DNA of 63,153 nucleotides from IMG/VR virus record IMGVR_UViG_3300042881_003513, positions 1-63,153 of that record; one strand, given 5' to 3'. A model generated the notes under the pieces. The model saw only the letters and a program-made list of their open reading frames with translations, was not told the DNA's origin and did no database searches. The translations under genes and the position numbers were made by a program. This stretch comes from a virus. Its lineage: Duplodnaviria; Caudoviricetes. This document shows positions 1,804 through 52,086 of this stretch, one piece after another (position 1 is the stretch's first letter; each line of letters opens with the position of its first letter).

Positions 1804-1813
1804 AATCCGAACC

Positions 1814-2140: not shown

Positions 2141-2148
2141 CAATCATC

Positions 2149-2960: not shown

Positions 2961-2964
2961 ACTT

Positions 2965-3315: not shown

Positions 3316-3355
3316 CCCGGGAACTCACCATAATTACAGCACTTTAATCCCAAAC

Positions 3356-21300: not shown

Positions 21301-23256
21301 GCGCCGGCCAACCAGCGCAGCGGGCTCATGGCGCGCATCCTCGGCGATCTCGCCAGCGACACGCCCGCGAGCAAACTGAAGACGAAATTTGACCACGCCA
21401 TCAAGCGCGTGTTCGCGAGCATGTTCGATCTGGAACAGGAAGGGCACTCGCTGCGCGGCGGCGGCGACATCGCAGGCACGCTCGGAGCCTACGCGCAGGC
21501 GGCGAACAACACGGTCGCGGATCGGGTGTTCGTGAAGTCGCTCACCGACATCATGGCGCGCGACGGCCGCCCGATGGCAGTGCCAAGCGGAGCAATCACC
21601 AGGACGGACGGATCGGCGGACTCCCCGCTGCTCATCAAGCCGCACACGCACCCGGCGGACACTTCCGACTACCGCCCGATCTCGCACCCGGCGCTTCGCA
21701 AGTGGAAGTGGCTCGGCAAAGAAGGCGAGAAGGACGTTCTTGTGGAAGGCGAACTACTCATCCACCCCGACCTCTACAAGCGGCTGAAAAACACGCTCGG
21801 CACCTCGGCGCTGAACAACGTGCCGATCATCAAGGCCGTCGGCGAGTTTCAGGCCATCGTGAAGCAGCTCATGCTTTCGTTCTCGCCGTTCCATTTCGTG
21901 CAGGAGGGCACGCACGCCATCGGCCACAAGGTCAACCCCTTCAAAGTGACGGAGATCGACATGGACGATCCGGCGACACGCGAACTAGTGAACGCCGGGC
22001 TCATGCTCGCGAACTGGAACGCCAAGGCGGAATTTGGCGAGGGACTGACGGCGAGCGGCATGGAAAAGCTGCTCTCTCACATCGGACTCGGGAAGCTCGG
22101 GAAGCTGAACGACACGATGAGCGCGTTCCTTTTCGAGAAGTACATCCCCGGTCTGAAAATCGCGATGGCGAAGGAGGCGATGGTGCGCAACATGGAGCGG
22201 TTCAAGAAGGATCTGGCCTCCGGCAAGATGACGCGCGAACAGGTCGCACAGAAGACCGCGCAGCAGGCCAACGACGCATTCGGCGAACAGAACAACCTCT
22301 ACGCGGGCAACAACCCGACGCGCCTGCACTTCGAGCGCCTGCTTTTCCTCGCCCCGGACTTCCTGAAGTCGCGCGCCAAGTTCTTCGCCGATGCGTTCCG
22401 CAAGCACGGCAAGGAGCAACGCAACGCGCTCATCCTGCTCGCCGTCGTCCTCGCAGTGACCGCGAAGCTCCTTGAGCGGATGCTGACCGGCAAGAACGAT
22501 TGGGAGAAGCCTTTCAGCGTGGTGACAGAGGGCCGCGAATACGAGCTGCGCAGCGTCCCCGGCGACGTGATCGCGCTGCTCAAGAACAGGCGGCAGTTCG
22601 TCATGGGGCGTATTTCCCCGCTCATCAGCCGCACCGCGCTCGAAGCGGCCACCGGGCGCGACTGGCGCGGCCAGCAGCGTTCCGGCGCGCAGCAGGTGAA
22701 GGATCTCGCCATGACGCCGCTCCCGCTTGCCCTGCGTGGCGTGATCGACCCGGAGGCACCGGACATCTCCGCGGCGGAGTCGCTGATCAGTTCCTCGGGA
22801 CTGCGCACAATCCGGCACAGCGAAATCACCAAGGCCCGCAAGCTCGGGCGCGAGTGGCAGAAGGCCAACGGAAGCGAGCATGTGGACGAAGTGCATCCGC
22901 CGTCGAAATACGTCGGGATCAAGAACGCGCTCGAAGACGGCGACAGCGCGCGGGCGATGAAGGAATACGGGAAGCTGCTCGCCACGATGCCGAAGGATAA
23001 GGCGGACACCGGATTCCGCTCGTCGCTCATGAAGCCGTTCAGCGGGAGTCTCGCAAACGAGAAGGCGTTCGTCGCCTCACTCGATGCCGACGACCGCGCC
23101 ACGTATCAGGCGGCGATGACGAAGCGCGGACGGATGCTGGCAGCCTTCACGCGCATGTCCGCGACGACGCGCGCGCCGGCCAATGCGCCGCGGGCCGCAG
23201 CGAAGGCCGCGCCGATCGGGAGCCGCAATCTCACGGTGAAGGAGTTCTTCAGGTAG
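9358..23256 (+). CDS. Giant polyvalent DarB-like virion protein (N6-adenine MTase + SNF2 helicase + accessory domains)
   Basis: ARYVGWGGL, AHFTAPE, EPSMGIGSF, VSNFPF (MTase); HVVGGGKT, IDEAHEFKN, ATGTP, QREGRGIRQGN (SNF2); hydrophobic N-terminal segments. Confidence 0.85.
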   Translation: MGFDAYEQLAVDPGAVGDVARSILETPSQPGESYADTQYRSAQQAGATARIQAIKGKQWAARGVPSYQDMQGNTKPVMDDTGSPLSKLDPKHNIAYDSTGSPKKIDFDVAGGSPVLKDPFEGLETTTDPKTGHQYKIAPGLPWRWVGTDAQTAQKAEFARQDANLSKASAALGRKLTLTEYDEKFHRDAIKDVRSQLKQLSVADTNSVTGDPLDYDSLVAGINSQFDDLKKNDTTANAKEYFGMGGYTPEALKAQQALDLSRTAALRAAAKGHAHAQTLDGIRQQAEAVRAQRMMIEQTKLDHETEILKAQGIDISQPRQQYGDTPEDSAQNEQIAQSAGVHPATAQAYKQAVAGQKPYAIEGGKPKPIDGKYEEGLTAAAQDGLIAPPAPEVLEAARTADAKYQELIKQAGGNQKLKAFIASGVKSYTALQAGMAASALVAPFDPELAAGGAALGGVGAVVVPMLAHGVAFLAGMFGANKALDALSEKAAEYSDDMASIQAAIKLQPGAAQLGNFAGMGPAAIKSAMNLSKAAGVAAAEATGAGASGAKAAAGYLGKTAGTGAVGGAIFETTIRPGFDWMVDQIGGALGGEKEGVQAPTVGSVLEMAGIGALLSGLHLKIKDIGTAEATDIVKRGMQAMRDGKSLDQVLSPSENDAFMSIGEKLAKMKESGEALIKDPERFSINVRQVLTGEDRPAGDYAKVARDAEIRRTPRQKEIRDKDTFEFQKDGQTDWEAIGNKHGITAAEAQAEYARATQIAGPVQARTTNIEGVEPMKAGLPEPEAQPPASATAKPVTPNPKPAEPGTTNIGEKLGSELDKVEVTPEPPAPTEPAPAAVAKVSPEIPSDLDQRIAPVMEDFTQRLADADRKIAMAKGQGNSDVIAEAKAEKDAIFEDMKQRLGTDIPEQVPQIVRDRLESGTHDWEDGRGLREKEAYRYVIDQHEGEQGMGEPSFYVIRNLDTGKESDPYEKREDAEAFLRAHGKGGVAPEGWVEPEKPSVLPDAKPPHEKIIGESQFHSDRRELGKPTTFKTWEAYDSWLKTKSDKFLTDALGTQAKNLIDQIKQEASGMRIPKSDRSNLETRINIGAVFKEALRRGLPVPESEGLSQYTGSRPARKEAPRQNALPEPPAPNEPKLPASERNDQSQPEGAKPAGGASEVAKTEEGKPGGEPAGQAGGKPDAETVERRKKIVGTVNVAMRGHAKELSNLGHIARAHEAELPESNKSGIALHNGKITVDAEKLDAATEQMTPKERETYINAAIGEEVLHKGFMNFVNESPANRARALKLIEDEPAAVEYLQKHYKGFDALDPEHKAAEIARVIMQGKAGVTTESTWKFIEDLIAHIKRILGNMTDATRKLIADIEARMKGAETEKAAKKPKAEKPATRPERRDLNPDEQRKVDALRAEIKKLNQGRPVADDMAMNDKGASLARLEKQIAEKQGEIDGIYDNARKAETPEKPKPKSNSVGVNERGQQLYEDENGVRYRIEDGVKISAPVYIVPTRAGVKAQKQTPEGEWRTAEEAAAEKPKPPLPNLESQKPAVLEPHATFAERRALSEKWLNTLSPDALLKKMAEYGVPATRAQKVWDKARNRKPDDTKDYAEDFQLEAGDDLSFWEKSAKSPLPNRGSVLPEKKADAPKLSPGAQAIKDKLGDLFSAAAPEPRYDAPIPREKRDALNSLTADLIDSHGVDTPEKLAAALTELGPKALAFSQNIWFKMKSEGAQGSAEPNWKSIYAQLAPEPKTDIVTPDEQPATTPKLESPADDNGDGGTTPGGAESGAGGKITGGGKVEGATGGTGEEPVSDGEGASSGGKIKAGSEGDSDERVGDISAGRGNLRLELSDGIGEGGLTRKFRDNVSAIKTLRAIEAERRDATPEEQKTLARYVGWGGLAEKAFQPGGEFYDEMQALGLSDDEMASARRSTTNAHFTAPEMVQGIWGALAKMGFQSGRITEPSMGIGSFYGFMPAEIARYSSLTGIEMDNLTSRIAKVLYPESKVWNRPFEKHVMADNSQDVIVSNFPFSDADHPNDPRYNKINPNLHDYFFLKSLDKVRPGGFVVAITSIGTMDKMGSAVREVLSAKANLVAAFRLPNTMFKGNAATEVTTDLIILQKRGPGVPMEHKDWLNPVHITTRTGDEIRINQYFRDNPSNMLGIMTSEGKMYGKTTAGEDAKKVGSKALLSDGRTVAQLIEQIKKTLPENIFVPEDKQAATIRNADELEFDPNSEKDGSFVLHKNEVKVFRGGEVERPRKEISPTTKRHTLLSGYIESGHVEIDDDGTVKRTGAAWPESKNPTDIKLRAEIEAGDITGEQYKEFREVEEKYEDPLTGSERTTTVERQFSTYAFDGDFTKADYERIKQLIPLRKSLKAVLHAQVTNADDATLAAMQKDLNVFYDTYVKENGFLHEGKTRAAFQDDPFYPALMALEDYDATNNETTKTDIFSKRTRPRKEPLTGLTGTTRENMTKIMAQTGKVDVELQAKLSMRDPDELGDEMVREGLVFRDAVTGNYVEREEYLSGNIYEKLHAAEEAAKSDESFRKNIEELTKAIPELRPVERIGFSLGAAWIDPHTYSEFVKHIYRDRGQASEFKYKNGRWEVNVPVRGNAEGFGTEDVSTEELISQSMNLSSPTVRKRFDDGSSVVLEKETKLARMAQNRLKQEFKNFILDNPDIHEPLVKKFNELANAIRPRTYDAPYSTLEGMNPEISLRKHQLDFVWRATVDGKAVAAHVVGGGKTFAFIGAGMEWKRMGLASKPMYIVPNHLLRSGQTASDFYRMYPTAKILTVTERDFTAKRRQRLMARIATGNWDAVLIGHSQIGSIPVSPDLMAAHIQGELAELEEALRATNDEVDPNSKQGKKRIKALEASLAAKRSKMEKLLDPRRADKALYFEELGVDAIIIDEAHEFKNLNFWTKLNNIGGLGSANTETIKTAQLKVKTDYILRQNNGRNLLFATGTPITNTIAEVYLLQKYIAQDLLDAAGIKYFDEWAQMFADVREVAEISPDGQTFQNKAKFVEFKNMQSLITMFRRYVDIQRQEQLNLPVPPLFGGKIQNIVFQPTQVVQDYMAEVVERAEALRGGKVDPRVDNWLKLNTDARKISTDPRLIDANLPDDPEYKSSRIAKNTYEIWKANDYRKGTQIVFCDLYSNKVERARKNAFGEPERYKRGPKRGQPIVEKVELFNVFTDMKDKLIRMGVPEDQIAIIHDYEKDEDKEELKSNFNAGKIRVLLGTTMKLGTGMNLQRRMVAVHSMDANYRPDQMTQREGRGIRQGNLFHEATIGGKKAPGRMPQQPSYELSKDGALTTGPGGKFGPFNIIITRNAVERTLDSRIYQTITTKTKIVEDLLNGDYKGDTASDISDAELRGQEMIAAASGNPLVMERFTLENEVRDLKISQEDFDRRQARIRKEIRELTSGIEENDRAIPHVDALRDAHRAADADIDRRVKEGEEAKQKELSDKHVFDPETPFVVTRDVKKKGKQTELELAKEKIGEGEKEEVPMTILDMLKEPLKKTKNNPDGELELRAFGLNGRLTRKSERIEAAQSLTGESRLRHTFSWNYTGASASKFEFATQYNDEAPELYKYSGDSPLPKFKEQRDYLIERAAHQWLYDNARQTDVEVGGTRFTTLQEAVKALEPKLNALKKGESLSFKENGVDVSVKAEEKKSLTEDEKKNADMLGVVPMLYHANFPALKDVGAQAYNPLASSDASQLIWHIANSLKWIPSSEQIQKNVADQKNQLKMKQDAVQTAFPEADQLDEKQARLAEVVRLTSGDPHARTADPNDDDGQIADDGSGETFSAAAPERRATDAVAAGAKGREETKEDRKAAQAATFATKPPGVASQIWDAVKTAGSATKRWWGEMPAYDTIDKAIGQWLGAGDSAPLKGTDIVIPGRQKAAHESRKLVETIVKQFPNVLTRQAISRYMEADGDKATLQKWADKSKPEMKAVYERALNLNAAEKAMADTAKTFFKEKGEEAQKLGLLGNLLENYVTHFVEKAPANQRSGLMARILGDLASDTPASKLKTKFDHAIKRVFASMFDLEQEGHSLRGGGDIAGTLGAYAQAANNTVADRVFVKSLTDIMARDGRPMAVPSGAITRTDGSADSPLLIKPHTHPADTSDYRPISHPALRKWKWLGKEGEKDVLVEGELLIHPDLYKRLKNTLGTSALNNVPIIKAVGEFQAIVKQLMLSFSPFHFVQEGTHAIGHKVNPFKVTEIDMDDPATRELVNAGLMLANWNAKAEFGEGLTASGMEKLLSHIGLGKLGKLNDTMSAFLFEKYIPGLKIAMAKEAMVRNMERFKKDLASGKMTREQVAQKTAQQANDAFGEQNNLYAGNNPTRLHFERLLFLAPDFLKSRAKFFADAFRKHGKEQRNALILLAVVLAVTAKLLERMLTGKNDWEKPFSVVTEGREYELRSVPGDVIALLKNRRQFVMGRISPLISRTALEAATGRDWRGQQRSGAQQVKDLAMTPLPLALRGVIDPEAPDISAAESLISSSGLRTIRHSEITKARKLGREWQKANGSEHVDEVHPPSKYVGIKNALEDGDSARAMKEYGKLLATMPKDKADTGFRSSLMKPFSGSLANEKAFVASLDADDRATYQAAMTKRGRMLAAFTRMSATTRAPANAPRAAAKAAPIGSRNLTVKEFFR

Positions 23257-42306: not shown

Positions 42307-42587
42307 CTCTCGCCGACGCCGAAATCAAAACCGGACTCCAAGGCCGCGAAGTGCCGAGGATCGACCGGGAGAAGTTTAGCATGGGGCCAGCGCAGGCCGA
42401 CCGCTTCAACTCCGTCGGCGATCCGCACCGATGCCAGCTTGGGAAGTGGGTGCTGGAGAAGGGCGTCGTGACGCTCAAGGATAACGACGGCACCTATTAC
42501 AAGGCGTGGTGGCAGGATCACATTTTCCACCTTGTCGGCTACGGCCCGACGTTCGCCGACGCCTGCGAAATGGCGCTCGGCAAGTAA
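42303..42587 (+). CDS. Hypothetical protein
   Basis: Coupled ORF, GC3-rich. Confidence 0.55.
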   Translation: MTLADAEIKTGLQGREVPRIDREKFSMGPAQADRFNSVGDPHRCQLGKWVLEKGVVTLKDNDGTYYKAWWQDHIFHLVGYGPTFADACEMALGK

Positions 42588-42616
42588 CTCAACAACCAAC
42601 CAACCACACAACCACA

Positions 42617-43531
42617 ATGTCAGACCAACAACTCGCAGCTACCACCAACAAACCGAGCGCCCTCGCAGTCATGGCCGCGCGCTTCTCGCTTGAACCGAGC
42701 AAGCTCCTCTCCACGCTCAAGGCGACCGTATTCAAGGGCGCGTCGGACGACGAGATGTGCGCGCTCGTCGTCGTCGCCAATGAATATGGGCTGAACCCGC
42801 TCACGAAGGAAATCTACGCCTTCCCCGCCAAGGGCGGCGGCATCGTGCCCGTCGTCTCGATTGACGGCTGGATCAACCGCATGAACTCGCATCCGCAGTT
42901 CGACGGCATCGAGTTCGCCGACAGCTTCGACGCCGCCGGAAAGCCGGTGAGCGTCACAGCGTCCATCTTCCGAAAGGATCGCACGCGCCCGACCATCGTG
43001 ACCGAATACTACGGGGAGTGCTACCGCAGCTCCGATCCGTGGAATAAGTGCCCGGCGCGGATGCTCCGGCATAAGGCGCTCATGCAGTGCGTGCGCGTGG
43101 CGTTTGGCTTTGCTGGCGTGCATGACGAGGACGACGCAGCCGCGATCACTTCATCTGTGACGATCTCCGAAATCCCGCGCGCCCAACTCACTGACACGCG
43201 CGCAGTCGAGGCAGAAGTGATCCCGCCGGACAAGCGTCCCGATCCGCGCCCGAAGGCAGAGAAGCCCAAGGCGAAGCCCGAACCCGCGCCCGAAAAGACG
43301 CCGGCACCCGCGAGTGATCCCGCTCCCGCTCCCGAAACTCCCCTCGGAAAGCTGCGCGCGATGCTCGCGGAAGGCGGATGGACCGATGACGAATGCGTGA
43401 AACTCGCGATCTCGGTGTTCCCGGCTCTCAAGCACATCAAGACCGTGGACGAGATCCCGGCCTCGAGGATCGCTGACATCATCGAGGACTGGGCCACCGC
43501 CGAGGGCGCGATGAAGACGATCAGGGGGTAG
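42617..43531 (+). CDS. bet: RecT/Red-beta family ssDNA-annealing recombinase
   Basis: YGLNPLTKEIYAFP.KGGGIVPVVSIDGW, HPQFDG, PW...P.RMLRHKA.MQC.R.AFG. Confidence 0.9.
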   Translation: MSDQQLAATTNKPSALAVMAARFSLEPSKLLSTLKATVFKGASDDEMCALVVVANEYGLNPLTKEIYAFPAKGGGIVPVVSIDGWINRMNSHPQFDGIEFADSFDAAGKPVSVTASIFRKDRTRPTIVTEYYGECYRSSDPWNKCPARMLRHKALMQCVRVAFGFAGVHDEDDAAAITSSVTISEIPRAQLTDTRAVEAEVIPPDKRPDPRPKAEKPKAKPEPAPEKTPAPASDPAPAPETPLGKLRAMLAEGGWTDDECVKLAISVFPALKHIKTVDEIPASRIADIIEDWATAEGAMKTIRG

Positions 43532-43533
43532 CC

Positions 43534-43734
43534 ATGCCCGAAGGCAAAAGGATCACCACGCTGGAGCAACTCGCCGCGGCGAGCGCGGCGAAGAAGGCGA
43601 TTGTCACACGCACTCAGTTCTTCACCAACCGGCACATGCCCGCTGCCTTTATCCTCAATATGTCCGGCAGCGTGCTCCACTGCATGATGAGGCAAGGAAT
43701 GTTCATCTACACCCCGAAAAAATCCGAACCATGA
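43534..43734 (+). CDS. Hypothetical protein
   Basis: Coupled small ORF. Confidence 0.5.
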   Translation: MPEGKRITTLEQLAAASAAKKAIVTRTQFFTNRHMPAAFILNMSGSVLHCMMRQGMFIYTPKKSEP

Positions 43735-44864
43735 TCAGATCATCCACATCCCCATCCAATTTGCACAGGCGCGTGCGCTGCCCTGGCTCGCACGCGGCTG
43801 AATTGGGCCTGCCCGAGCAGAACAGCGAATACGCCGAGGAAGGCACCCGCCTGCACGCCGCGCTGGAAGACAGCGCGGGATGCGAAGGACTCGACGAAAA
43901 GCAGATCGAACTCGTGCTTTCGACACGGGAAATCTTCGCCGAGGTCATCGAGCGCACGGTCGCTGCGATGGCGATTCCGCCGGATGCACCGTTCACAGAG
44001 GGCTACGAGCGCGAGCTTCGCGTGCGGAGCAAGCTGCGCACGGTGATGATCGGCCATTGCGACCATTGGCGCTACTACCCCGATCAGAAGGTGCTGGTGA
44101 TCACGGACGCCAAGTTCGGATTCATCGAAGTCACGCCGGCCCCGCTTAACCTTCAACTGCGCGCATACGCGGTGATGGGCTCACAGGAGTGGGATGTTGA
44201 ACATGCCGTCGTCGCCATCGCGCAGCCTCGCGCCGGCATGATCGACGACGCCGAGAAACTGACGATCGCGCAGTATGACCGCGCCGACCTCGCCCTAGCT
44301 CACGCGCAGATTCTTGAATGGGAGTGCGAATGGTTGAAGCCGTTCGCGCCGCGCGTGCCTTCCGAGGATGCGTGCAGGTATTGCAAGGCCAAGCTGCTTT
44401 GCAATCAGTACGCCGAGCGGATGGGATCGCTGAAGGGTGATGTCGTCGCCGGGATTGCTGATCTGCCGGAGGATCGGTTTGCCCTGCTTTTCGAGGCGCT
44501 GAAAATCGCGGCGAAAGCCGACACGCAAAAAGCAATCTTGGCCGAGGCCCGCGTGCGCGTCGCCGAGGGGCGGCTACCCGGCTACCGACTCAAGCCGAAC
44601 GCAGCGCGACGGTCGATCACCGACAACGCGAAGGCGTCGGCGATCCTTCGGGACGGGCTTGCGTTCACGCAGGATGAGATCGCGGAAGCGAGTTCGCTTT
44701 CACTCGGCGAGGCCGTGACCGTGCTTCGCCGCAAAGTGAAGTTCAAAAACGAGGCCGAGGCGACCAAGTGCCTGCGCGACACGCTGGCGTCGGTGATCGA
44801 ACTCAAAACGCCGGAACCGAGCGTGGTTCCGGTTTCATCGCATGATGCTGCGAGGACTGTGTAG
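43731..44864 (+). CDS. PD-(D/E)XK exonuclease, DUF2800/Cas4-like
   Basis: SPS...CPGS, AEEGTRLH, GHCD, DAKFG, QLRAYA, CRYCKAK..C. Confidence 0.85.
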   Translation: MIRSSTSPSNLHRRVRCPGSHAAELGLPEQNSEYAEEGTRLHAALEDSAGCEGLDEKQIELVLSTREIFAEVIERTVAAMAIPPDAPFTEGYERELRVRSKLRTVMIGHCDHWRYYPDQKVLVITDAKFGFIEVTPAPLNLQLRAYAVMGSQEWDVEHAVVAIAQPRAGMIDDAEKLTIAQYDRADLALAHAQILEWECEWLKPFAPRVPSEDACRYCKAKLLCNQYAERMGSLKGDVVAGIADLPEDRFALLFEALKIAAKADTQKAILAEARVRVAEGRLPGYRLKPNAARRSITDNAKASAILRDGLAFTQDEIAEASSLSLGEAVTVLRRKVKFKNEAEATKCLRDTLASVIELKTPEPSVVPVSSHDAARTV

Positions 44865-44982
44865 CGATGAAGCTCAAGGGATGCACCGGGAACGCGCTCC
44901 GAAACGGGACTGACTTCATGACTACCAACACGCCTCCTCAACTGAACGCCAGGGTGCCGTCCGTATCATCCGCTGGTTCGGA
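44859..44982 (-). other. attC-1 (degenerate, distal)
   Basis: AGC-N6-GCTCAAG-GGATG-CACC ... GGTG-C-CGTCC ... N5-GTTCGG; L-box pairing decayed. Confidence 0.5.
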
Positions 44983-45934
44983 GCCGGATTTAGTCGGCGC
45001 GAGCACACGATGCGATGGGAGCCGTGGCGGTGCGCGTGGTGTGCGGTCGGATTCAGATTTGGCACCGGACAAGAGGCCCAATGGAGTCAGCGTGGCGCTT
45101 GCTTCCGCGCAAGGTAGTCCGGTGCCATTCACTTTGCTGGCTGGCGACTGCCGCGAGACTTTGCGCGGGCTGCCGGCCGCGTGCGCGCAATGCTGCGTGA
45201 CCTCGCCGCCATACTGGAATCTCCGCGACTACGGGCACGCCGACCAAATCGGGCAGGAGGCGACGCCAGAGGAATACGTTGCCAGTCTCGTGAAGGTGTT
45301 TCGCGAAGTCCGGCGGGTGCTCGCGCCCGATGGGACACTGTGGCTGAACCTCGGAGATACCTACTGGAAGAAGCAACTCGTCGGCATCCCGTGGCGCGTG
45401 GCGCTTGCTTTGCAGGCGGATTCGTGGTGGCTGCGCTCGGAAATCATCTGGCATAAAGAAAACGCGATGCCGGAGAGCACGACGGACCGGCCAAGTCGTA
45501 GCCACGAAACAATCTTTCTGTTCGGTGCCTCCGAGAGCTACCGTTACGACGCAGAAGCAATCAAAGAGCCGATCCAGTCAGACCGCGCGCCGAGCCGAAA
45601 GGCGAAGGCCACTGGCGCGGGGCACTCCGAACTTCGAGGAGGCACACCCTACGACGGGAGCGGGACGCATCGCAACCGCCGCACGGTCTGGACGGTGCCA
45701 ACGGCACCGTATCCGAATGCTCACTTCGCCGTTTATCCGGCGACTCTCATCGCGCCTTGTATCCTCGCCGGGAGTCAGCCCGGCGAGGTGGTGCTCGATC
45801 CTTTCGGCGGGAGTGGAACGACGGGAGCCACCGCGCTGACTCTCGGGAGAAAAACGATCCTGTGCGAACTCAACCCGGAATACGCGAAGCTCATCGAGCA
45901 ACGCACGACAACCACCTTTGGATTGCCTCTATGA
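44918..45934 (+). CDS. DNA methyltransferase, N4-C/N6-A family (beta class)
   Basis: GDC, VTSPPYW, HFAVYP, VLDPFGGSGTT; alternative ATG at 44867. Confidence 0.9.
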   Translation: MTTNTPPQLNARVPSVSSAGSEPDLVGASTRCDGSRGGARGVRSDSDLAPDKRPNGVSVALASAQGSPVPFTLLAGDCRETLRGLPAACAQCCVTSPPYWNLRDYGHADQIGQEATPEEYVASLVKVFREVRRVLAPDGTLWLNLGDTYWKKQLVGIPWRVALALQADSWWLRSEIIWHKENAMPESTTDRPSRSHETIFLFGASESYRYDAEAIKEPIQSDRAPSRKAKATGAGHSELRGGTPYDGSGTHRNRRTVWTVPTAPYPNAHFAVYPATLIAPCILAGSQPGEVVLDPFGGSGTTGATALTLGRKTILCELNPEYAKLIEQRTTTTFGLPL

Positions 45935-46152
45935 ACCGTCCAAATTACGACAACGTAGCTGACGCAATACGCGGCGCAATGGCTAGGCTGTGCCGGGCTG
46001 TATCACGTCGAATGATGCCGGATGAACCAACGCCGGAAGATAGGATCGAGATGCTGGAGGCATACGCGGCGGCGTGCGCCTTGCTGGAGTCATGCCAGCC
46101 GAACGACAAGCTCTGCCGCGAGCAGGGCGGAAAGGACTCCGATGGCAGGTGA
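45931..46152 (+). CDS. Hypothetical cassette protein
   Basis: ATGA-coupled; ends inside attC-2. Confidence 0.55.
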   Translation: MNRPNYDNVADAIRGAMARLCRAVSRRMMPDEPTPEDRIEMLEAYAAACALLESCQPNDKLCREQGGKDSDGR

Positions 46153-46191
46153 ACCGCGGCGACATGGAGACGGCGCAGCGCATGGTTCGCT
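46098..46191 (-). other. attC-2
   Basis: GCCGAAC-N5-GCT-CTGCCG ... CGGCG-C-AGC-N5-GTTCGCT. Confidence 0.7.
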
Positions 46192-46375
46192 TCCTCGCCT
46201 ACCCGCAAGACCTTGGGTTGCGAGTCAGCAATACTCCATGCGCTTCATCCTCTCACGAGACAACGAAATACTGTGGCGGTGTGACTTCGTGCCGATGCCG
46301 GTACTCAAGGCGATGGTGGACGCCGCCAATGCAGCAATGGAAGCGAACGAAAAGCTCACCGACGCGCCGGGATAG
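46142..46375 (+). CDS. Hypothetical cassette protein
   Basis: Starts in attC-2, ends in attC-3 (ANEKLTDAPG). Confidence 0.5.
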   Translation: MAGEPRRHGDGAAHGSLPRLPARPWVASQQYSMRFILSRDNEILWRCDFVPMPVLKAMVDAANAAMEANEKLTDAPG

Positions 46376-46461
46376 CGCGTCAAAAACACACTGACTCTTA
46401 TGAAAAAGATACCCATCAAAAACACGAAGAAGGCGCGTTCGAGTGCAGCGCATGGTTCGGC
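46342..46461 (-). other. attC-3
   Basis: AGCGAAC-N5-GCT-CAC-CGA-CGCGCC ... GGCGCG-T-TCG-A-GTG-C-AGC-N5-GTTCGGC. Confidence 0.9.
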
Positions 46462-46663
46462 GCACTCGTTGGCTGCAACTATTGCCGCCGCCCTGTTCAC
46501 GAGCGGGGACGGCAAGAGGGCGTCCAGACTACATTTCATCCTCGAAAGCGGGGACGTGTGGGGCGGCTGGAGTGAAGCGGCAGTCGCAGCACAGATCGAG
46601 AAGCTGCTCAGTGCGCCGAACGATGGAACTTACGGACAGACCCCTCACAACCCGACCACATGA
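46400..46663 (+). CDS. Hypothetical cassette protein
   Basis: Starts in the attC-3 loop, ends in attC-4. Confidence 0.6.
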   Translation: MKKIPIKNTKKARSSAAHGSAHSLAATIAAALFTSGDGKRASRLHFILESGDVWGGWSEAAVAAQIEKLLSAPNDGTYGQTPHNPTT

Positions 46664-46800
46664 GCACGCCAAGAATCTGCCCAAGCTGCAATAACTACCT
46701 GTTTGACGACGAAGCGCCGAAATGCGTCTGCGCAAATAACTGCGCGCCCGAACCGGAGCGTTCGAGTGAGGGGGCTGTTACGTGCAGTGACTTGATCTGC
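46615..46800 (-). other. attC-4 (GAT/ATC core)
   Basis: GCCGAAC-N6-ACT-TACG-GACAG-A-CCCCTCAC ... GTGAGGGG-G-CTGTT-A-CGTG-C-AGT-N5-GATCTGC. Confidence 0.8.
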
Positions 46801-46977
46801 GAATGGGAAGCCGCGCTCTCGACGGCAGAGAAGATGATGAAGGAGACCGAACGCAAGGAAGGCTCCACATACTACTACTGGCAGGGGCGATACGATGAGG
46901 CCGAAAGCGCGTTGGATCGGGCGCGGAGACATTCGCAGATCGGTGAGCACAGCAACACGCCGACACCACACCAATGA
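46660..46977 (+). CDS. Hypothetical cassette protein with Cys cluster
   Basis: CPSC...CVC encoded in the attC-4 loop; ATGA-coupled at both ends. Confidence 0.6.
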   Translation: MSTPRICPSCNNYLFDDEAPKCVCANNCAPEPERSSEGAVTCSDLICEWEAALSTAEKMMKETERKEGSTYYYWQGRYDEAESALDRARRHSQIGEHSNTPTPHQ

Positions 46978-47050
46978 GCACTCCACCTGACCTACTCACT
47001 CCGCACGGCAGCACGACAACAGGCGTGTTTGCTGCTGCGGCTGGTTATCT
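46935..47050 (-). other. attC-5
   Basis: GCAGATC-N5-GCA-CAGCA-ACACGCC ... GGCGTGT-T-TGCTG-C-TGC-N5-GTTATCT. Confidence 0.88.
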
Positions 47051-47951
47051 TTCCGCCGTTGAAGTTCACGACCCTGCCACGAAGCAGAGTGCATCTTGGA
47101 GCGGGGGGACTTCTAAAACACAAGCCGAAGGCCCAATCCACATCATCTCGCTCGGCGCGGGCGTGCAAAGCTCTACGATGGCGCTGATGGCGGCGCACGG
47201 CGAGATCACGCCGATGCCCACGGCGGCGGTGTTCGCGGACACACACGCGGAACCGGAAAGCGTGTATCGCTGGCTCGAATGGCTGGAAACGAAACTGCCG
47301 TTTCCGGTGCATCGCGTGAGCAAAGGCGACCTCGCCCGCGTGTCGCTGACTGTGCGCGACAAGAAAGACGGCACCGGAAAATGGGTGAAGTCCCTAATCC
47401 CGGCGTTCATCCAGAATCCAGACGGAAGCCGTGGAATCATGGGGCGTGCCTGCACGTTCGATTACAAGGTGATGCAGTTGGAAGCTGCGGCGAAACGAAT
47501 CGGCGAGATCAAGCGGAACCAAAAGACGGTCGGCGTGATCCAGTGGATCGGAATCAGCCTCGACGAAGCGCATCGCATGAAGCCTGCACGCAAGGCGTGG
47601 GTGGAGCATCGCTGGCCGCTGATAGACGCGGGCATGAAGCGGCACGATTGCTTGCGGTGGATGGAGCGGATGGGCTACCCGAAGCCTCCGCGCTCGGCCT
47701 GCATCTACTGCCCGTTTCACAGCGACGCTGAATGGCGAAGATTGAAGGACGAGGAGCCGAAAGAGTTTGCTCGCGCGGTGCAATTCGAGCGCGACCTGCA
47801 ACACGCGAAATCTCAGACGGACAACCAGCGTGGAAAGCCGTTCCTGCACAACTCACTGAAACCGCTCGACCAGGTGGATCTGAGCACGGACATCGAACGC
47901 GGACAGGGCGAGATGTTCGGAAACGACTGCACGGGGCTTTGCGGCGTATGA
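46974..47951 (+). CDS. PP-loop / PAPS-reductase-like phage protein
   Basis: ISLGAGVQSS, FADT..EP, WIGISLDE, RWPL, PPRSACIYCPF, terminal CTGLC. Confidence 0.8.
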   Translation: MSTPPDLLTPHGSTTTGVFAAAAGYLSAVEVHDPATKQSASWSGGTSKTQAEGPIHIISLGAGVQSSTMALMAAHGEITPMPTAAVFADTHAEPESVYRWLEWLETKLPFPVHRVSKGDLARVSLTVRDKKDGTGKWVKSLIPAFIQNPDGSRGIMGRACTFDYKVMQLEAAAKRIGEIKRNQKTVGVIQWIGISLDEAHRMKPARKAWVEHRWPLIDAGMKRHDCLRWMERMGYPKPPRSACIYCPFHSDAEWRRLKDEEPKEFARAVQFERDLQHAKSQTDNQRGKPFLHNSLKPLDQVDLSTDIERGQGEMFGNDCTGLCGV

Positions 47952-48109
47952 CTCGTGCAACCGCCAGCGTCCGCTTTCGAGGAATGCGTGTGGGGCTTCC
48001 GAAGGGTAGCGCCGACCCTCGGCACTCTGAGTCGGGGAACAATCAAGCTCAGAGACCGCGAGCCGGGAGCGGGGCATCTGAAACAATACCGGCATCCAAA
48101 ATACCATGA
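47948..48109 (+). CDS. Short coupled ORF running into attC-6
   Basis: ATGA overlaps at both ends; may be a cassette remnant. Confidence 0.35.
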   Translation: MTRATASVRFRGMRVGLPKGSADPRHSESGNNQAQRPRAGSGASETIPASKIP

Positions 48110-48162
48110 AACACCGAATCCAAACCGCCAAGCTCGCGGTTCTCTGCAGCGCCTTGTTAGCC
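48034..48162 (-). other. attC-6
   Basis: GGGGAAC-N6-GCT-CAGAG-ACCGCGAGC ... GCTCGCGGT-T-CTCTG-C-AGC-N5-GTTAGCC. Confidence 0.92.
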
Positions 48163-48378
48163 CTTGGCGCTTGCTCGAAAGACCCAATCAGCAAGGCCGG
48201 AACGAACAATCCTGAAATCACCGTTGAACTCCTATTCGAGAAGGACGGCGTGAAGGTCTATCGCTTCACGGACTCGGGTAGAAGCATCTACTACACCGAT
48301 GCGCGTGGGCGCACGGACTGGTCAGTGAACCAAGGCAAGAACGGCGTCCGTCACTTCGGCGTGGAGACAGCGCAATGA
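48106..48378 (+). CDS. Lipoprotein, DUF4884-like
   Basis: LGAC lipobox; VELLFEKDGVKVYRFTD.GRSIYYT. Confidence 0.7.
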   Translation: MKHRIQTAKLAVLCSALLALGACSKDPISKAGTNNPEITVELLFEKDGVKVYRFTDSGRSIYYTDARGRTDWSVNQGKNGVRHFGVETAQ

Positions 48379-48382
48379 AAAG

Positions 48383-48472
48383 GGCTAACGAATAAGCTCA
48401 TGGACACGCCTCACTTCGCTCTCGAATTACAGGAACCGCTCAAGGCGTGTTCCATGCAGCGCATGGGTCTGC
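48383..48472 (-). other. attC-7 (GGT/ACC core)
   Basis: GGCTAAC-N6-GCT-CATGG-ACACGCCT ... AGGCGTGT-T-CCATG-C-AGC-N5-GGTCTGC. Confidence 0.9.
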
Positions 48473-49239
48473 GAACGCCCGGACAAGAGCCGCGCGTGGC
48501 ACGCACGAAAGATGCGGTGCGGAGCGGAGTGGGCGGAGTTCTGCGCTCCGTGTATGAGGACCAGCACGACATCCTCGAAGCCATCCGGCAACTGCACTGC
48601 CCCGAAGGCTACGAAGCAGATTTGACGTTTGGAAATGGTAGCTTCTGGAAGCGCCTGCCGCGCCCGAAATACTGCTTCGACGTGACGCCGCTGCATGAGG
48701 GCGTGGTGCAAGCGGACTCGCGGATGCTGCCGCTCGCGCCAGCGAGCCTCGGCAACGCCGTGTTCGATCCGCCGTTCCTGACCTACGTGCAAGCCGGACG
48801 CGCCCACAAAGAGGGCAAGGTGGCGATGACTGCGCGCTTCGGTGGATACTACCGCTACGACGAACTGGAAGACCACTACCGGGACACAATCAGCGAGTGC
48901 TACCGAGTCCTGCGCCCGAAGGGCAAACTGGTCTTCAAGTGCCAAGACATCATCCACAATCACCGGATGCACTGCACGCACGTCAACGTCATCCAGATGG
49001 CCGAAATCGAAGGCTTCCGGCTCGCGGATTTGTTCGTGCTTCCGGCCCGCCATCGGATGCCGTCGCCGCAACGCGGCACCCAACGGCACGCACGAATCTT
49101 CCACAGTTACTTTTTGGTGTTCGAGCGCGATGCCTCTGCGGGCGGCGGGGGTGCGGAGCTGGGGGCAAATAAGAGCAAGCGTGGAACGAAGAGCGGCGCG
49201 CGTTCGCAGACCGAAAAGCTCACCGACGCGCCGAGATAG
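48400..49239 (+). CDS. Putative amino DNA methyltransferase
   Basis: DLTFGNGSFW (SAM-binding), VFDPPF (catalytic), ECYRVLRPKG.LVFKCQD. Confidence 0.75.
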   Translation: MDTPHFALELQEPLKACSMQRMGLRTPGQEPRVARTKDAVRSGVGGVLRSVYEDQHDILEAIRQLHCPEGYEADLTFGNGSFWKRLPRPKYCFDVTPLHEGVVQADSRMLPLAPASLGNAVFDPPFLTYVQAGRAHKEGKVAMTARFGGYYRYDELEDHYRDTISECYRVLRPKGKLVFKCQDIIHNHRMHCTHVNVIQMAEIEGFRLADLFVLPARHRMPSPQRGTQRHARIFHSYFLVFERDASAGGGGAELGANKSKRGTKSGARSQTEKLTDAPR

Positions 49240-49324
49240 CGCCTCGCAAACACACTGACTTTATGAAAAAGAAAACCGTCAAAAACACGAAGAAGGCGCG
49301 TTCGAGTGCAGCGCATGGTTCGGC
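49206..49324 (-). other. attC-8 (near copy of attC-3)
   Basis: Stems identical to attC-3; differences only in the loop. Confidence 0.9.
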
Positions 49325-49511
49325 GATTCCCGCGTCGAAGCTACTACGAGCCGAAGCAACCCGCCTCGACGTGCTGAAACACGCGATGCCAGATGCAGCC
49401 GAGGACATGATAGCGGCTCAGGTGTGGGCCTACAACATGGCGGCGGCATACCTCGACGCTCTAGGCGCGCCGGAGAAACTGGTGCGCTACGTGCCTTCGC
49501 CGAACAGATGA
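49263..49511 (+). CDS. Hypothetical cassette protein
   Basis: Starts in the attC-8 loop; stop lies in attI. Confidence 0.6.
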   Translation: MKKKTVKNTKKARSSAAHGSAIPASKLLRAEATRLDVLKHAMPDAAEDMIAAQVWAYNMAAAYLDALGAPEKLVRYVPSPNR

Positions 49512-49536
49512 TTCCGCAGAAAAAAATCCGCATATC
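49499..49536 (-). other. Putative attI site
   Basis: Minus strand GCGGAAT-catct-GTTCGGC (imperfect inverse core, 5-bp spacer, core) with repeated TGCGGA; no attC hairpin. Confidence 0.65.
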
Positions 49537-49617
49537 ATGAAAAAGACAGAACTGATCGAACAGCTACAAATCGCGATTCGGCGCAAGCACTACAACTACG
49601 CGACCGTGAACCAATGA
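49537..49617 (+). pseudogene. intI: Truncated integron integrase N-terminus
   Basis: MKKTELIEQLQIAIRRKHYNYATVNQ* resembles the IntI start LLDQ.R..IR..HYS..T; canonical position next to attI. Confidence 0.7.
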
Positions 49618-51170
49618 TCGCCCGCCCTTACCAATCCGCCTCCGTCGAGAGCGTAGAGCAGGCATTTCGCGAGTTTTCCAAAGTGCTCGGCGTGGCTGCG
49701 ACCGGGGCCGGAAAGACGATCGTGTTCTCGATGTTCACGCAGCGGCACCTTGCGGAATCGGACACGAACCGCGTGCTCATCATCGCGCACCGCGAGGAAC
49801 TGCTGACTCAGGCGGCGCAGAAACTCATGCGCGCGACGGGTATCAACTCCGAACTGGAGCGCGCGGATGCGCGCGCAAGCCTCGACGCCCGCGTGGTGGT
49901 CGCGAGCATTCAGACACTCTGCCGACGCTTCGAGCGGTTCCCGGCGAACCATTTCACGCGGATCATCGTGGATGAATGCCATCACGCACTGGCGGACAGC
50001 TACCAGCCGGCGCTCCAGTATTTCCTCGGCGGCAGCGCGAAAGTCTTGGGCGTGACTGCAACGCCGGGAACGAAGGGCAAGAAGGCGCTCGGGAATTTCT
50101 TCGAGACGATCGCTTTCGAGGTCGGGCTGATTGAGTTGATCCGCGCGGGCTACCTATCCCCGATCAGCGTCAAGAGCTTCCCGCTCATCGGCGGGGGCGC
50201 GGAACCGATCTCGTTTGCGGTCAAGAATGGCGACTACGATCAGGAGCAGGTGGATCACGCCCTCGATCCCTACCTTGAGAGCATCGTTGCGCGGCTCGGC
50301 GCGGAGATTGGCGACCGTAAGACGCTCGTTTTTCTGCCGCTCATCAAGACGGTGGAGCGGTTCGTGGCGCTGTGCAATGCGGCGGGACTGAAGGCCGCGG
50401 GCGTGAGCGGCGTGAGCGAGGAACGGGCAGACATCCTTTCCGCGCACGGCACGGACTTTCAGATCCTCGCGAACTCGATGTTGCTGACCGAGGGCTATGA
50501 CGACCCGGCGATCTCGGCGATGATGATCCTGCGGCCGACGCGCTCAGAGATTCTTTTCTCGCAAATGGTGGGGCGCGGCACGCGAGTCTATTGCCCGTGG
50601 GGATGCACCGAACGATGCACGCACGGATCGCGGAAGCGCAACCTGCTGTTGTTGGATCCGCTTTGGCTCCACGAGGACATGAACCTGGTGCGACCGGCGA
50701 ACCTTGTGACCGGACGAGACGAGGACCGCAGGAGCATGAGCGAGCGCGTGGCGGCGAAGCAGGAGGAACTCGATCTTCTGAACATGCTCGCCGACGCGGA
50801 GCATGACCGGGAAAAATCACTCGCCGAGAAGCTGGCGCGCATGGAGAAGCGAAAGACGAAGACGATCAGCGTGGAGGAGTGGGCGGTGCTCGCGCACGCG
50901 CCGAACATTGCGGATTTTGAACCGACGATGCGGTGGCACGAATCGCCGATCTCGCCAAAGCAGGCGGAAATGCTGGTGCGCTTCGGCTTCGACGCCGGGA
51001 GCGTCCGGGGCCGCGGGCACGCATCGGCGCTGCTAGACGTGTTCTTTTCCCGCCGGAAGCAGGGACTCGCGACCGTGGCGCAGGTGCGGCTGATGACGAG
51101 GATGAAGCACCCGAACCCTGAGACGGAGACTTTCGCCGGCGCGAAGGCGTGGCTCGACCAACGATTTTAA
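49614..51170 (+). CDS. Superfamily 2 DExH helicase
   Basis: RPYQ, ATGAGKT, DECHH, TAT, TEGYDDP, QMVGRGTR. Confidence 0.92.
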   Translation: MIARPYQSASVESVEQAFREFSKVLGVAATGAGKTIVFSMFTQRHLAESDTNRVLIIAHREELLTQAAQKLMRATGINSELERADARASLDARVVVASIQTLCRRFERFPANHFTRIIVDECHHALADSYQPALQYFLGGSAKVLGVTATPGTKGKKALGNFFETIAFEVGLIELIRAGYLSPISVKSFPLIGGGAEPISFAVKNGDYDQEQVDHALDPYLESIVARLGAEIGDRKTLVFLPLIKTVERFVALCNAAGLKAAGVSGVSEERADILSAHGTDFQILANSMLLTEGYDDPAISAMMILRPTRSEILFSQMVGRGTRVYCPWGCTERCTHGSRKRNLLLLDPLWLHEDMNLVRPANLVTGRDEDRRSMSERVAAKQEELDLLNMLADAEHDREKSLAEKLARMEKRKTKTISVEEWAVLAHAPNIADFEPTMRWHESPISPKQAEMLVRFGFDAGSVRGRGHASALLDVFFSRRKQGLATVAQVRLMTRMKHPNPETETFAGAKAWLDQRF

Positions 51171-51182
51171 GAAAACCACAAA

Positions 51183-51371
51183 ATGAACCTGCCAACCTAC
51201 AAGGAATACTCGTACGACGAGCCGATCCAGAAACAGACCGCGATCCACATGAACCACCTGCTCGATTTCATCCACAACGCCAACCCGCCTTTGAAGGTGA
51301 AGGAAGCGGCGAAATTCATCGCTGACGAAATGGCGATGCACCGCGAGCTGCGCGAGGAGGACGAGGTATGA
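51183..51371 (+). CDS. Hypothetical protein
   Basis: A/C-rich leader; coupled to the next gene. Confidence 0.55.
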   Translation: MNLPTYKEYSYDEPIQKQTAIHMNHLLDFIHNANPPLKVKEAAKFIADEMAMHRELREEDEV

Positions 51372-51877
51372 GCGATCTTTTTGGCGGAAAAAAAGACGAC
51401 TGGGCGACCCCGCAGTGGTTGTTCGACGCGCTCGATGATGAGTTTGATTTCGGGCTGGACCCGTGCTGCTACGCGCACACGGCGAAGTGCGATCTGTTCT
51501 TCACCGAGGCGGACGACGGGCTGGCGCAGTCATGGCATGGCCGGAGCGTGTACGTGAATCCGCCCTATTCCGAGATGAACGACTGGATGAGGAAGTGCGC
51601 GGACGAGTCGCGCAAGGGCGCGAAGGTGATCGTGGCGCTCGTGCCGGCGCGCACGGACACGAAGGCGTGGCAGGATACCGTGCTCCGAACCGCGGACGAG
51701 ATCCGATTCATCCGCGGGCGCGTGCAATTTGTCGGCGCGGAGGCAGGGGCGAAATTCCCGAGCGCACTGGTGATCTGGCGGCACCGGCTGAACCTGCTCG
51801 ACCGGAACCCGTCGCGGCATTCGCTGAAGGTGGGCGGTTTCGACATTCGCGCGCTGAAGCCGAAGGGGGCAAAATGA
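51368..51877 (+). CDS. Phage N6-adenine DNA methyltransferase (Dam-like)
   Basis: DWATPQWLF, LDPC, DDGL, VNPPYS, LVPARTDT, IRFIRGR. Confidence 0.9.
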   Translation: MSDLFGGKKDDWATPQWLFDALDDEFDFGLDPCCYAHTAKCDLFFTEADDGLAQSWHGRSVYVNPPYSEMNDWMRKCADESRKGAKVIVALVPARTDTKAWQDTVLRTADEIRFIRGRVQFVGAEAGAKFPSALVIWRHRLNLLDRNPSRHSLKVGGFDIRALKPKGAK

Positions 51878-52086
51878 GCGAGGCCGAGATCCACGCCGTC
51901 GCGAACCAGATCGCGACCGAAACGGCAACGAGGCTGTGCGCCGTGCTGCGGGACGGCGGCGCGCTGCCGCTTCTTGATTCTCAGGAGCCCGTAGTGCTCC
52001 TGTCACTGAAGCTGGCGGCGACGCAGGGCTTCGAGCAGGGATTCGCGGCGTGTGCCGCGATGACCGAGAGAACCCCAAAAGCATGA
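51874..52086 (+). CDS. Hypothetical protein
   Basis: ATGA-coupled small ORF. Confidence 0.5.
   Translation: MSEAEIHAVANQIATETATRLCAVLRDGGALPLLDSQEPVVLLSLKLAATQGFEQGFAACAAMTERTPKA

Follow-up and report, generated by a model that had tools for sequence, protein, structure and literature searches.

Why does the genome of a lake-water phage hold a row of eight genes, each enclosed in its own pair of inverted repeats, and why do two of these repeats begin with GAT and GGT where the others begin with GTT? The genome in question is IMG/VR record IMGVR_UViG_3300042881_003513, a complete linear phage record of 63,153 bp (CheckV 100%) whose long open reading frames (ORFs) lie almost all on the + strand; we refer to this whole stretch as the window. 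The eight units stand in a row at 44.86-49.5 kb, one gene between each pair of repeats. We conclude that positions 44857-49617 are probably a phage-borne integron cassette array that has lost its integrase gene, that is, a cluster of attC sites lacking an integron integrase (CALIN) with a ΔintI stub. The units agree with attC sites and CALINs in structure, in junctions, and, in contigs with the same sites, in association with an integrase; in gene polarity they do not.

All units follow one plan. A conserved motif, approximately GGCGYGTTYG.TGCAGCGCATG, precedes a left arm that starts with GTT (once GAT, once GGT); the gene body follows, and the right end is the exact reverse complement of the left arm, ending in AAC (ATC, ACC) and often followed by GAAAAGCTCACCGACGCGCC. 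In attC terms, the left arm is R'' and the right end is R'. The form GCAGCGCATGG of the motif occurs exactly four times in the window, always on the + strand, between 46175 and 49318. The GAT unit is bounded by an inverted repeat at 46794-46805 (GATCTGCGAATG) and 46930-46941 (CATTCGCAGATC; 12 nt, 100% complementary), and the GGT unit by one at 48466-48481 and 49197-49212 (16 nt, 94%), of which the outer 13 nt are perfect (GGTCTGCGAACGC at 48466-48478, GCGTTCGCAGACC at 49200-49212). Four GTT/AAC units have a like build, with arms at 46185-46194/46339-46348, 46455-46466/46610-46621, 48156-48165/48380-48389, and 49318-49326/49497-49505. The first-pass annotation had placed GAT at 46794-46796, ATC at 46939-46941, GGT at 48466-48468, and ACC at 49210-49212 and had argued that pairing survives the change of the middle base. 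Both statements hold, the variant triplets being the outermost bases of perfect 12- and 13-nt inverted repeats, and its view of the region as an integron-type cassette array is borne out by the repeats, hairpins, and junctions.

From each ...AAC to the next GTT..., the sequence is predicted to fold in a recurring way. AAC and GTT form a helix, bounded by 4-7 unpaired bases on the 5' side and by five on the 3' side (GCATG, GCCTT, or GCGTG), and beyond these comes an uninterrupted 5' arm (GCTCAC...), opposite a 3' arm (...GTG-C-AGC) in which two or three bases bulge out singly. These linkers are 49-172 nt long and have loops of 20-120 nt, unrelated in sequence, in which one gene stops and the next starts; from site to site the helix differs in sequence with its pairing retained. 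Twelve of 19 predicted folds pair an uninterrupted 5' arm of 14-18 bp with a 3' arm that has 2-3 single bulges, four more show this pattern plus an extra interior loop, and three do not fit. Scored with RNA parameters, cognate 5' and 3' arms outscore all 18 non-cognate combinations in 11 of the 19 sites (for example, -30.5 versus -17.1 for the best non-cognate arm in cassette 4, and -38.4 versus -28.1 in cassette 6). RNAalifold, run on a MAFFT alignment of 18 sites in which the variable loops were misaligned, returned 0 pairs. A like hairpin build is present in the integrase-linked arrays L066, L003, and L041.

This architecture is that of an attC bottom strand as described in passages of Nivina et al. 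2016 (PMC5027507): an R' of ...AAC that is cut between A and C, an R'' of GTT..., extrahelical bases on the arm opposite AAC (G16, T20, and T24 in VCR2; G16 and T23 in attCaadA7), an unpaired central spacer, and a variable terminal structure. In the predicted folds we find the R box ...AAC/GTT... in an imperfect hairpin, the extrahelical bases opposite AAC, the unpaired spacer, and the variable terminal structure. On an assumed numbering of R'' as 1-7 and the spacer as 8-12, the bulges fall at 16, 20, and 24 in the sites of cassettes 3 and 8, and at 16 plus 22 or 23 in those of cassettes 6 and 7, L207, and L066. By this predicted geometry the + strand is the bottom-type strand. On structural grounds alone, seven inter-cassette sites and a terminal half-site lie within 4.7 kb of a genome without an integrase, as in a CALIN.

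The genes are turned relative to these sites. They are sense on the bottom-type strand, run toward attI/intI, and start inside the variable loop or hairpin, so that their first 20-90 codons lie within the hairpin; matches to enzyme families begin only at residue 32, 49, or 88. Most cassette genes stop in the site of the next cassette, the last gene stops in attI-like letters (AGTGATTAG offers stops in two frames), and the gene of cassette 6 stops before its own R'. Cassettes 3 and 8 have sites with about 90% identity that encode the same first 19-20 residues, followed by unrelated bodies.

The window phage has no tyrosine or serine recombinase, integron integrase, or Y1 transposase. Its last ...CCGAAC (49505) is followed by an attI-like remnant, AGATGATTCC... 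(49506-49536), and then by a 26-codon ORF (49537-49617, + strand) that runs into the start of the helicase gene (49614-51170). From its Met onward this stub aligns with the N termini of integrases of relatives, and it ranks first among 1673 six-frame window peptides against a profile of five such N termini, at a modest E value of 0.012. We read it as a deleted intI. Two related phage contigs, L001 and L207, are 98.7-99.8% identical to the window across the stub, indicating that the loss is common to all three.

Intact integrase genes lie at the corresponding position elsewhere. L197, a contig of a Verrucomicrobiia metagenome-assembled genome (MAG) with a 40% identical nuclease gene, carries two cassettes of the same kind. 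The last one ends at the junction of ...TGTCGAAC with AGTGATTAGAC, and two bases on begins a 334-residue ORF with a full-length match to TIGR02249 (248.6 bits versus a cut-off of 265; XerC, 95) and a best PDB match to 2a3v, Vibrio IntI4 (E 2.2e-43). A tblastn search with this integrase across 294 loci identified six homologs, in L041, L003, L040, L014, L054, and L066, all of them IMG/VR contigs that had been gathered solely by a match to the 15-mer GCAGCGCATGGTTCG. In all six, the integrase gene is on the same strand, downstream of the motif, and immediately past the last ...AAC. Their TIGR02249 scores are 266.6-347.4 bits, so that six of the seven integrases, L197 included, exceed the cut-off, and the block LP..L..K.P.....W.W is invariant in all seven. 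The IntI-specific insert is present. In L197, L003, and L014, AGTGATTAG-like letters come after the last ...AAC, and the full integrase gene begins 2-75 nt on; L080 has the same letters after its last ...AAC and no integrase gene within the stretch examined. L066 has at least 10 cassettes with perfect 9-14-nt arms; its genes are on the + strand, their stops and starts overlap, and intI comes after them. An IntI gene thus stands beside the array in seven other contigs with the same site type, and not in the window. Distant viral relatives of the nuclease (L118-L122, 30-39% identity) have no such arrays, and IntI is absent from the four records searched for it (L120, L121, L118, and L001).

Two further observations concern integrases. 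In lake run X9, one contig enters the helicase start (49613) from a different upstream sequence and may represent a relative with other content in the region of the intI stub. In addition, a Verrucomicrobiota MAG contig (L287; G002:C50:1-2311) encodes an integron integrase above the TIGR02249 cut-off (267.1 bits), with GTTAGG.../...CCTAAC repeats and an antisense ORF, acetyltransferase-looking by eye, upstream in the classical polarity. Possible hosts therefore have ordinary integrons.

Close relatives differ from the window in cassettes. The window is 98-98.6% identical to L001 and L207 (from about 41.9 kb) and to L208 (from 41552) up to 46357, and L001 and L207 are again 98.7-99.8% identical to it from 49209/12, with different cassettes in between. 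The switch points among the window, L001, L207, and a further contig, L209 (46357, 46931/2, 47046, 48027, 48405/10, and 49209/12), are all at arms. Cassette 7, the GGT unit, is missing in L001, where ...GGGCTAAC is joined directly to GAAAAGCTCACC; the window reads ...GGGCTAAC, then GAATAAGCTCATGG...GCAGACC, then GAAAAGCTCACC. This indel indicates that the mobile segment consists of a site and the body after it, and that cutting takes place at the R' triplets rather than at GTT of R''. In L207 this slot is taken by a cassette with another methyltransferase. Neighbors also change around conserved cassettes: cassette 6 has different left neighbors in the window and in L207, whose copy is 98.9% identical and joined at the end of ...GGCGGAGAAC; cassette d of L001 has different right neighbors in L001 and L207; and the left neighbors of cassette 8 differ among the window, L001, and L207. 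Around cassettes 6 and d, the join always falls directly after ...AAC.

Such joints are also found in lake water, in assembled contigs of four runs (X9, X10, X11, and X13), which report presence and not frequency; bins without contig cover (e.g., 44964-45783 in X9 and X13) were not taken as evidence. The run flagged as a possible source is not among the four, so that these cases are independent. The joint 48388->49212, in which cassette 7 is out (823 nt, 4 nt ambiguous), occurs in contigs of X10, X11, and X13, and the form bearing cassette 7 in contigs of X9 and X10. A cassette that is never mobile, which the first-pass annotation had named as grounds for giving up its view, is therefore not what we see, cassette 7 being precisely absent in contigs of three of the four runs. 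In X9 the joint 48039->49212, with cassettes 6 and 7 out, has 1 nt of ambiguity and places the cut within AA/C or after AAC. Contigs of X9 and X11 join C46941 to the end of a foreign cassette, ...GGGAA; the window reads AT/C at this point. These contig joints put the boundary inside the R' triplet, between A and C, where the cut itself would fall. Separately, for a 32-nt piece of the window (46155-46186: 3' arm, spacer, and first two R'' bases), contig depths add up to a very high value in each of the four lake runs, and the piece is bordered on both sides by other sequences, with loose ends at 46155 and 46186; this type of site therefore seems common among other genomes of these lakes.

How unusual are the variant triplets? 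In 42 distinct cassettes curated from 12 sources (the window and 11 other loci), 39 have GTT/AAC, one has GAT/ATC, one GGT/ACC, and one GGT/AGC (L209 8939, middle base unpaired). Cassettes whose arms do not pair past the triplet were left out: cassettes 5 and 1 of the window, the latter with 6 bp only, and L209 10339 (GTT/ATC). The two window variants have related R boxes (G[A/G]TCTGCGAA...), and both cassettes end exactly at sequence switch points of related genomes. Cassette 7 and cassette e of L001 have homologous ends, the left-end alignment (3' part of the site, R'', and start of the body) being 85% identical. The R box of cassette e is GTTCTGGGAACCC/GGGTTCCCAGAAC (GTT/AAC), and compared with it cassette 7 is changed at three positions on both arms with pairing kept, the middle base of the triplet among them. 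Such compensated changes are predicted by selection on the R box of an excised circle, since the variant middle base, staying with its cassette when A/C is cut, must match its own partner only. The first-pass annotation had held that a homolog with GTT/AAC would tell against its claim; one does exist, in L001, but we read the difference as a compensated change and not as a refutation.

The same annotation had proposed an integrase that tolerates GNT cores. Tolerance of this kind is in print for IntI1: passages of Frumerie et al. 2010 (PMC2811028) state that only the first base must match between partners, that T2 of GTT is "quite tolerant" if its complement is changed, that T2->A raises the frequency, that GAT is cited as a preferred secondary site, and that GTT is kept in all characterized integrons. 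PMC12901181 makes no mention of GNT, GWT, GAT, GTT, or "secondary site". The window genome, being without an integrase, shows nothing on what an integrase tolerates. The reading of the annotation thus holds in part: the idea is sound, although middle-base tolerance as such is already published; what is new is a natural instance of it, in a lineage without its own integrase.

Several observations count against an integron array in the window. The record gave 0 matches to PF00589, PF00239, TIGR02249, and PF01797, and although the stub region is common to the window, L001, and L207, their cassettes differ, so that exchanges would have occurred without a known enzyme in cis. The genes are not of the classical kind, promoterless, upstream of their attC on the top strand, and read away from intI. 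The arms of cassette 1 pair over 6 bp only, its boundary being set by the motif with no strong repeat. In three of the 19 sites (w1, a8, and d19; the w1 test was anchored 3 nt off), cognate arms pair no better than the average non-cognate arm; folding energies are ordinary, with z <= -2 versus shuffles in only 3 of 13 sites and positive z in 2; and the bulge at position 16 is C, where the sites quoted in PMC5027507 have G. The two L209 cases among the four that depart from GTT/AAC are uncompensated, and only the two in the window are compensated. The lake data are assembled contigs, not reads, and the 4-nt microhomology at the cassette 7 joint is compatible with homologous or replication-slippage deletion. 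Some shared segments start inside the R' arm (L209 10531 versus window 46931; another body in L209 carries the R' of cassette 4), different middles are flanked by end segments that cassettes have in common, and cassette 5 is chimeric, its own arms (47044 GTT... and ...AAC 48040) not being cognate. From these sequence comparisons, it looks like homologous recombination is also at work in the region of the array.

Could the array then be a fossil, made of real attC relics that have been decaying since intI was lost? GAT and GGT would be products of neutral drift with no bearing on what an integrase accepts, and relatives would differ through homologous recombination between linkers, carried out by the phage RecT and nuclease. 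This possibility deserves to be taken seriously, although we consider it unlikely. It accords with an intI reduced to 26 codons, with the RecT gene (42506-43531) and the DUF2800/PD-(D/E)XK nuclease gene just upstream, with the chimeric cassette 5, and with the 7 further shared bases near the microhomology of the cassette 7 joint. The three non-GTT triplets all fall in the lineage of the window and L209, against 0 of 23 cassettes of integrase-bearing loci, and both uncompensated cases are in L209. Yet both variant triplets of the window are matched, and drift would not preserve the three pairing-keeping double changes that separate cassette 7 from cassette e of L001. Homologous exchange would be expected to scatter along the conserved stretches of 20-30 nt, whereas the joint 48039->49212 has an ambiguity of 1 nt and several neighbor swaps fall at the same phosphodiester.

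A further possibility is that the hairpins act in mRNA: the end of one gene would pair with early codons of the next, hide its start, and couple their translation, while the long-range repeats closed the cistrons and the likeness to attC was secondary. All genes are indeed on one strand with overlapping or abutting stop and start codons in the loop, and the hairpins would form in RNA too, the arm energies having been computed with RNA parameters. However, the Rfam scan of 43000-52000 (E <= 10) gave five weak, unrelated matches, none of them relevant, and the three mismatches in the long-range arms are A.G, T.C, and C.C, none of them G.U. Nor would translation explain the conservation of AAC/GTT, the one-sided bulges, the switch points between A and C, or the integrase at the end of the array in seven contigs. 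We regard this account as very improbable, although an effect on translation may be a side effect of the hairpins.

Chance was assessed with background counts and controls. Perfect inverted partners of at least 9 nt within 60-1400 nt are found at 52 of 3445 G-N-T positions (1.5%), compared with five of the six positions anchored by the motif (at least 8/10), the exception, 13552, lying outside the array; the motif of the GAT unit is weaker (6/10), hence its absence from these six. At least one strict cassette is found in 28 of 116 IMG/VR loci matched by the 15-mer, with 50 cassettes in all versus 4 in reversed-sequence controls. A triplet-free search for arms behind the motif in 294 loci was far too noisy (617-3659 candidates) for its counts to be used; GTT/AAC was the commonest pair (19-33) with other pairs at 10 or fewer each, which we do not count as evidence. 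L080 is a lower-GC viral contig that blastn does not match to the window; its 16-nt core CAGCGCATGGTTCGG is translated in all three frames across three successive genes, arguing that the motif is a nucleic-acid signal, and the right arm of cassette 6 of the window, which falls beyond the stop codon, points the same way. Although inverted repeats of this length are not rare and loose scans give many matches, chance repetition in GC-rich coding sequence is a negligible prospect, already refuted by these controls and by the recurrence of the same architecture in contigs without blastn relation (L080 and L066). Ends of miniature inverted-repeat transposable elements (MITEs) or transposons were rejected, as the arms differ per unit, and so were ribozymes or introns, as unit lengths of 167, 148, and 747 nt are not in frame and there is no Rfam match. 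Invertible segments, Xer/dif modules, origin iterons, and promoters were considered and dropped.

For an integron cassette array, the mechanism would run as follows. Read along the + strand, a site would begin with R' (...xAAC), about five unpaired bases, and the unbroken 5' arm; the variable loop, where one gene stops and the next starts, would lead into the 3' arm with its two to three single bulges, five unpaired bases, and R'' (GTTx...), and the gene body would end in an R' that pairs with that R''. An integron integrase would excise and insert cassettes by cutting between bases 2 and 3 of the R' triplet, as the junctions suggest. For the lineage of the window the enzyme may have been supplied in trans by a co-infecting relative or by the host; alternatively, the exchanges may predate the loss. 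An excised circle would join the cassette's own R' to its own site, and selection on the R box of this circle would account for the pair-specific repeat around each gene and for the matched GAT/ATC and GGT/ACC.

A wider, mirror-image reading, to which we give an even chance when all of its parts are taken jointly, builds on this. An uncultured phage family would possess a true integron, in at least 28 of the 116 15-mer-matched IMG/VR loci, some with IntI above threshold. Its genes would lie on the recombining strand, toward attI/intI, with the ribosome start and the first 20-90 codons in the attC hairpin. The last codons and the stop would usually be lent by the next site, so that the edges of the hairpins join protein "fronts" and "bodies". 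Natural GAT/ATC and GGT/ACC sites would still be cut and joined, and lineages without intI would exchange cassettes by means of an integrase in trans.

The array sits in the early/replication module. Upstream lie the RecT gene and then the DUF2800/PD-(D/E)XK nuclease gene (43731-44864, Pfam DUF2800), and downstream of 49505 are genes for a helicase, a Dam methylase, and a primase-helicase. All parts of the array described next are on the + strand. At the distal end, an R'-like terminal half-site with the triplet AGC (44857-44865) overlaps the TAG stop of the nuclease gene. The distal GCT reported in the first-pass annotation is correctly located (AGC on the + strand at 44863-44865), but it belongs to this degenerate half-site, the weakest part of the array. 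Directly after it, GATGAAGCTCAAGG is similar to a 5' arm as found in other sites (compare L209 9987-).

Cassette 1 (44866-46104) has its site at 44866-44975, R'' GTTCGGAGCCGG at 44976-44987, and R' ...CAGCCGAAC at 46096-46104; it carries an N6/N4 DNA methyltransferase gene (44867-45934; Pfam N6_N4_Mtase, E 4.7e-51; phrog_67) and a small ORF (45931-46152). Cassette 2 (46105-46348) has a perfect 10-nt pair, R'' GTTCGCTTCC at 46185-46194 and R' GGAAGCGAAC at 46339-46348, and a small ORF ending at 46375. Cassette 3 (46349-46621) has a hairpin site at 46349-46454, R'' GTTCGGCGCACT at 46455-46466, R' AGTGCGCCGAAC at 46610-46621, and an 87-residue ORF with no family (46400-46663). In cassette 4, the GAT/ATC unit (46622-46941), the site at 46622-46793 contains an inner hairpin (46636-46648/46766-46778; 13 nt, 92%), and the ORF (46660-46977) encodes 105 residues.

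Cassette 5 (46942-48040; site 46942-47043) has R'' GTTATCTTTCC at 47044-47054, R' GAGTCGGGGAAC at 48029-48040, and a PAPS-reductase-like ORF (46974-47951; phrog_424, E 2.3e-50). It is 86% identical between the window and L001, in flanks that are 98-99% identical. Its tail is a remnant, about 80 nt long, of the 3' end of another cassette: 47964-48065 is 85% identical to the end of cassette b of L001, whose R'' GTTCCCCGACTC pairs with the R' of cassette 5. The tail (47964-48040) corresponds to the 3' end of a cassette for an MT-A70-type methyltransferase that is intact in L001 and L207 (85% identical), and by this comparison it is evidently the scar of an internal deletion or fusion.

Cassette 6 (48041-48389) has its site at 48041-48155, R'' GTTAGCCCTT at 48156-48165, and R' AAGGGCTAAC at 48380-48389; its lipoprotein-like ORF (48106-48378; DUF4884) leaves the right arm non-coding, 3' of the stop codon. 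Cassette 7, the GGT/ACC unit (48390-49212; site 48390-48465), carries a DNA methyltransferase ORF (48400-49239; phrog_24333, E 5.7e-71). Cassette 8 (49213-49505), which adjoins the integrase stub, has its site at 49213-49317, R'' GTTCGGCGA at 49318-49326, R' TCGCCGAAC at 49497-49505, and an 82-residue ORF (49263-49511).

The cargo thus comprises two DNA methyltransferases, a PAPS-reductase-like enzyme, a lipoprotein, and four small proteins, and plausibly serves anti-restriction or host takeover, to judge from these gene assignments. The window has three DNA methyltransferase genes in all (44867-45934, 48400-49239, and 51368-51877), two of them inside cassettes, and relatives have further, different ones: MT-A70-type in L001 and L207, others at L207 8130-8900 and L209 10700-. 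G-rich conserved stretches (GGAGCGGAGTGGGCGGAG, GGGCGGCGGGGGTGCGGAGC, and CTTGGAGCGGGGGG) lie about 45-60 nt inside both ends of several unrelated cassettes (window 48513-48540, 49142-49161, and 47098-47112; L001 14822-14850, 15505-15524, and 12748-12762). They are not mutually complementary and mark the change from homologous cassette ends to different middles. Outside the array, one 4632-residue ORF (9358-23256, + strand) takes up one fifth of the genome.

Integrons have been described as devices of bacteria, with few published cases in phages. If a phage lineage owns such an array, integron-type shuffling of methyltransferases and accessory genes would enter the phage side of the arms race; phages would then be users of integrons that shuffle counter-defense genes and not occasional carriers of host fragments. 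Were the mirror-image reading true, the "universal" GTT would be shown to be dispensable in nature. The compensated GAT and GGT are a field example of what Frumerie et al. (PMC2811028) predicted from mutants. The reversed polarity bears on the open question of how cassettes arise and on the extent to which attC can be embedded in coding sequence, and such arrays may be under-reported if search models require intergenic sites after genes.

How does the array compare with known systems? GenBank phages include no relative; 57 records match the methyltransferase only, at a coverage of 7% or less. Literature searches on integrons of phages, viral contigs, Verrucomicrobiota, and Treponema yielded nothing on this family or polarity, and for phage integrons only Qi et al. 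2023 (PMC9892861) was found, whose 17 supplement-listed CALINs might include a similar case. Passages of that paper report 17 CALINs and five methyltransferases among 10,705 NCBI phage genomes, surveyed with IntegronFinder and HattCI on cultured or NCBI phages, and three complete phage integrons, all in temperate phages, the one described being a captured fragment of a host chromosomal integron. As in those phage CALINs, the window has an attC array without IntI, DNA methyltransferase cassettes, and probably a virulent phage as its carrier. Unlike the phages in these passages, it is one of a family of contigs from uncultured phages, some of which encode an IntI themselves, and its gene polarity is reversed.

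The site and intI geometry is that of a classical integron: the bottom-type strand is the intI sense strand and, in relatives, attI lies between the array and intI, with an IntI above the TIGR02249 cut-off at the attI end. Classical, too, are the imperfect hairpins with R box, unpaired spacer, bulges opposite AAC, and variable loop, as are cassettes that end at the R' triplet and whose first bases pair with their own R'. In contrast, the window genome has no IntI, and its cassette genes are reversed, with starts in the hairpin. In class 1 integrons, intI is divergent from the cassette genes. The fourth base here is mostly C (GTTC), compared with the classical GTTRRRY, the first bulged base is C where it is classically G, and intI starts only 2-75 nt past the last AAC. 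R boxes are perfect over 9-14 bp, compared with the 7-nt consensus box quoted in passages of PMC5027507.

In the reverse integrons of Treponema, as described in passages of PMC3607928, intI and the cassette genes point the same way, as they do here. Treponema intI, however, is transcribed toward attI and lies upstream of the cassettes. In relatives of the window, intI is downstream of the cassette genes and transcribed away from attI and the cassettes, as is typical; it is the cassette genes that are turned. As for the triplets, GAT and GGT with their complements correspond to the engineered T2 mutants of attCaadA7 and VCRd with IntI1, for which passages of PMC2811028 report recombination near the wild-type level, and higher for GAT. 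Those variants were laboratory mutants, whereas the GAT and GGT of the window are natural and would, judging from their junctions and matched partners, be active as well.

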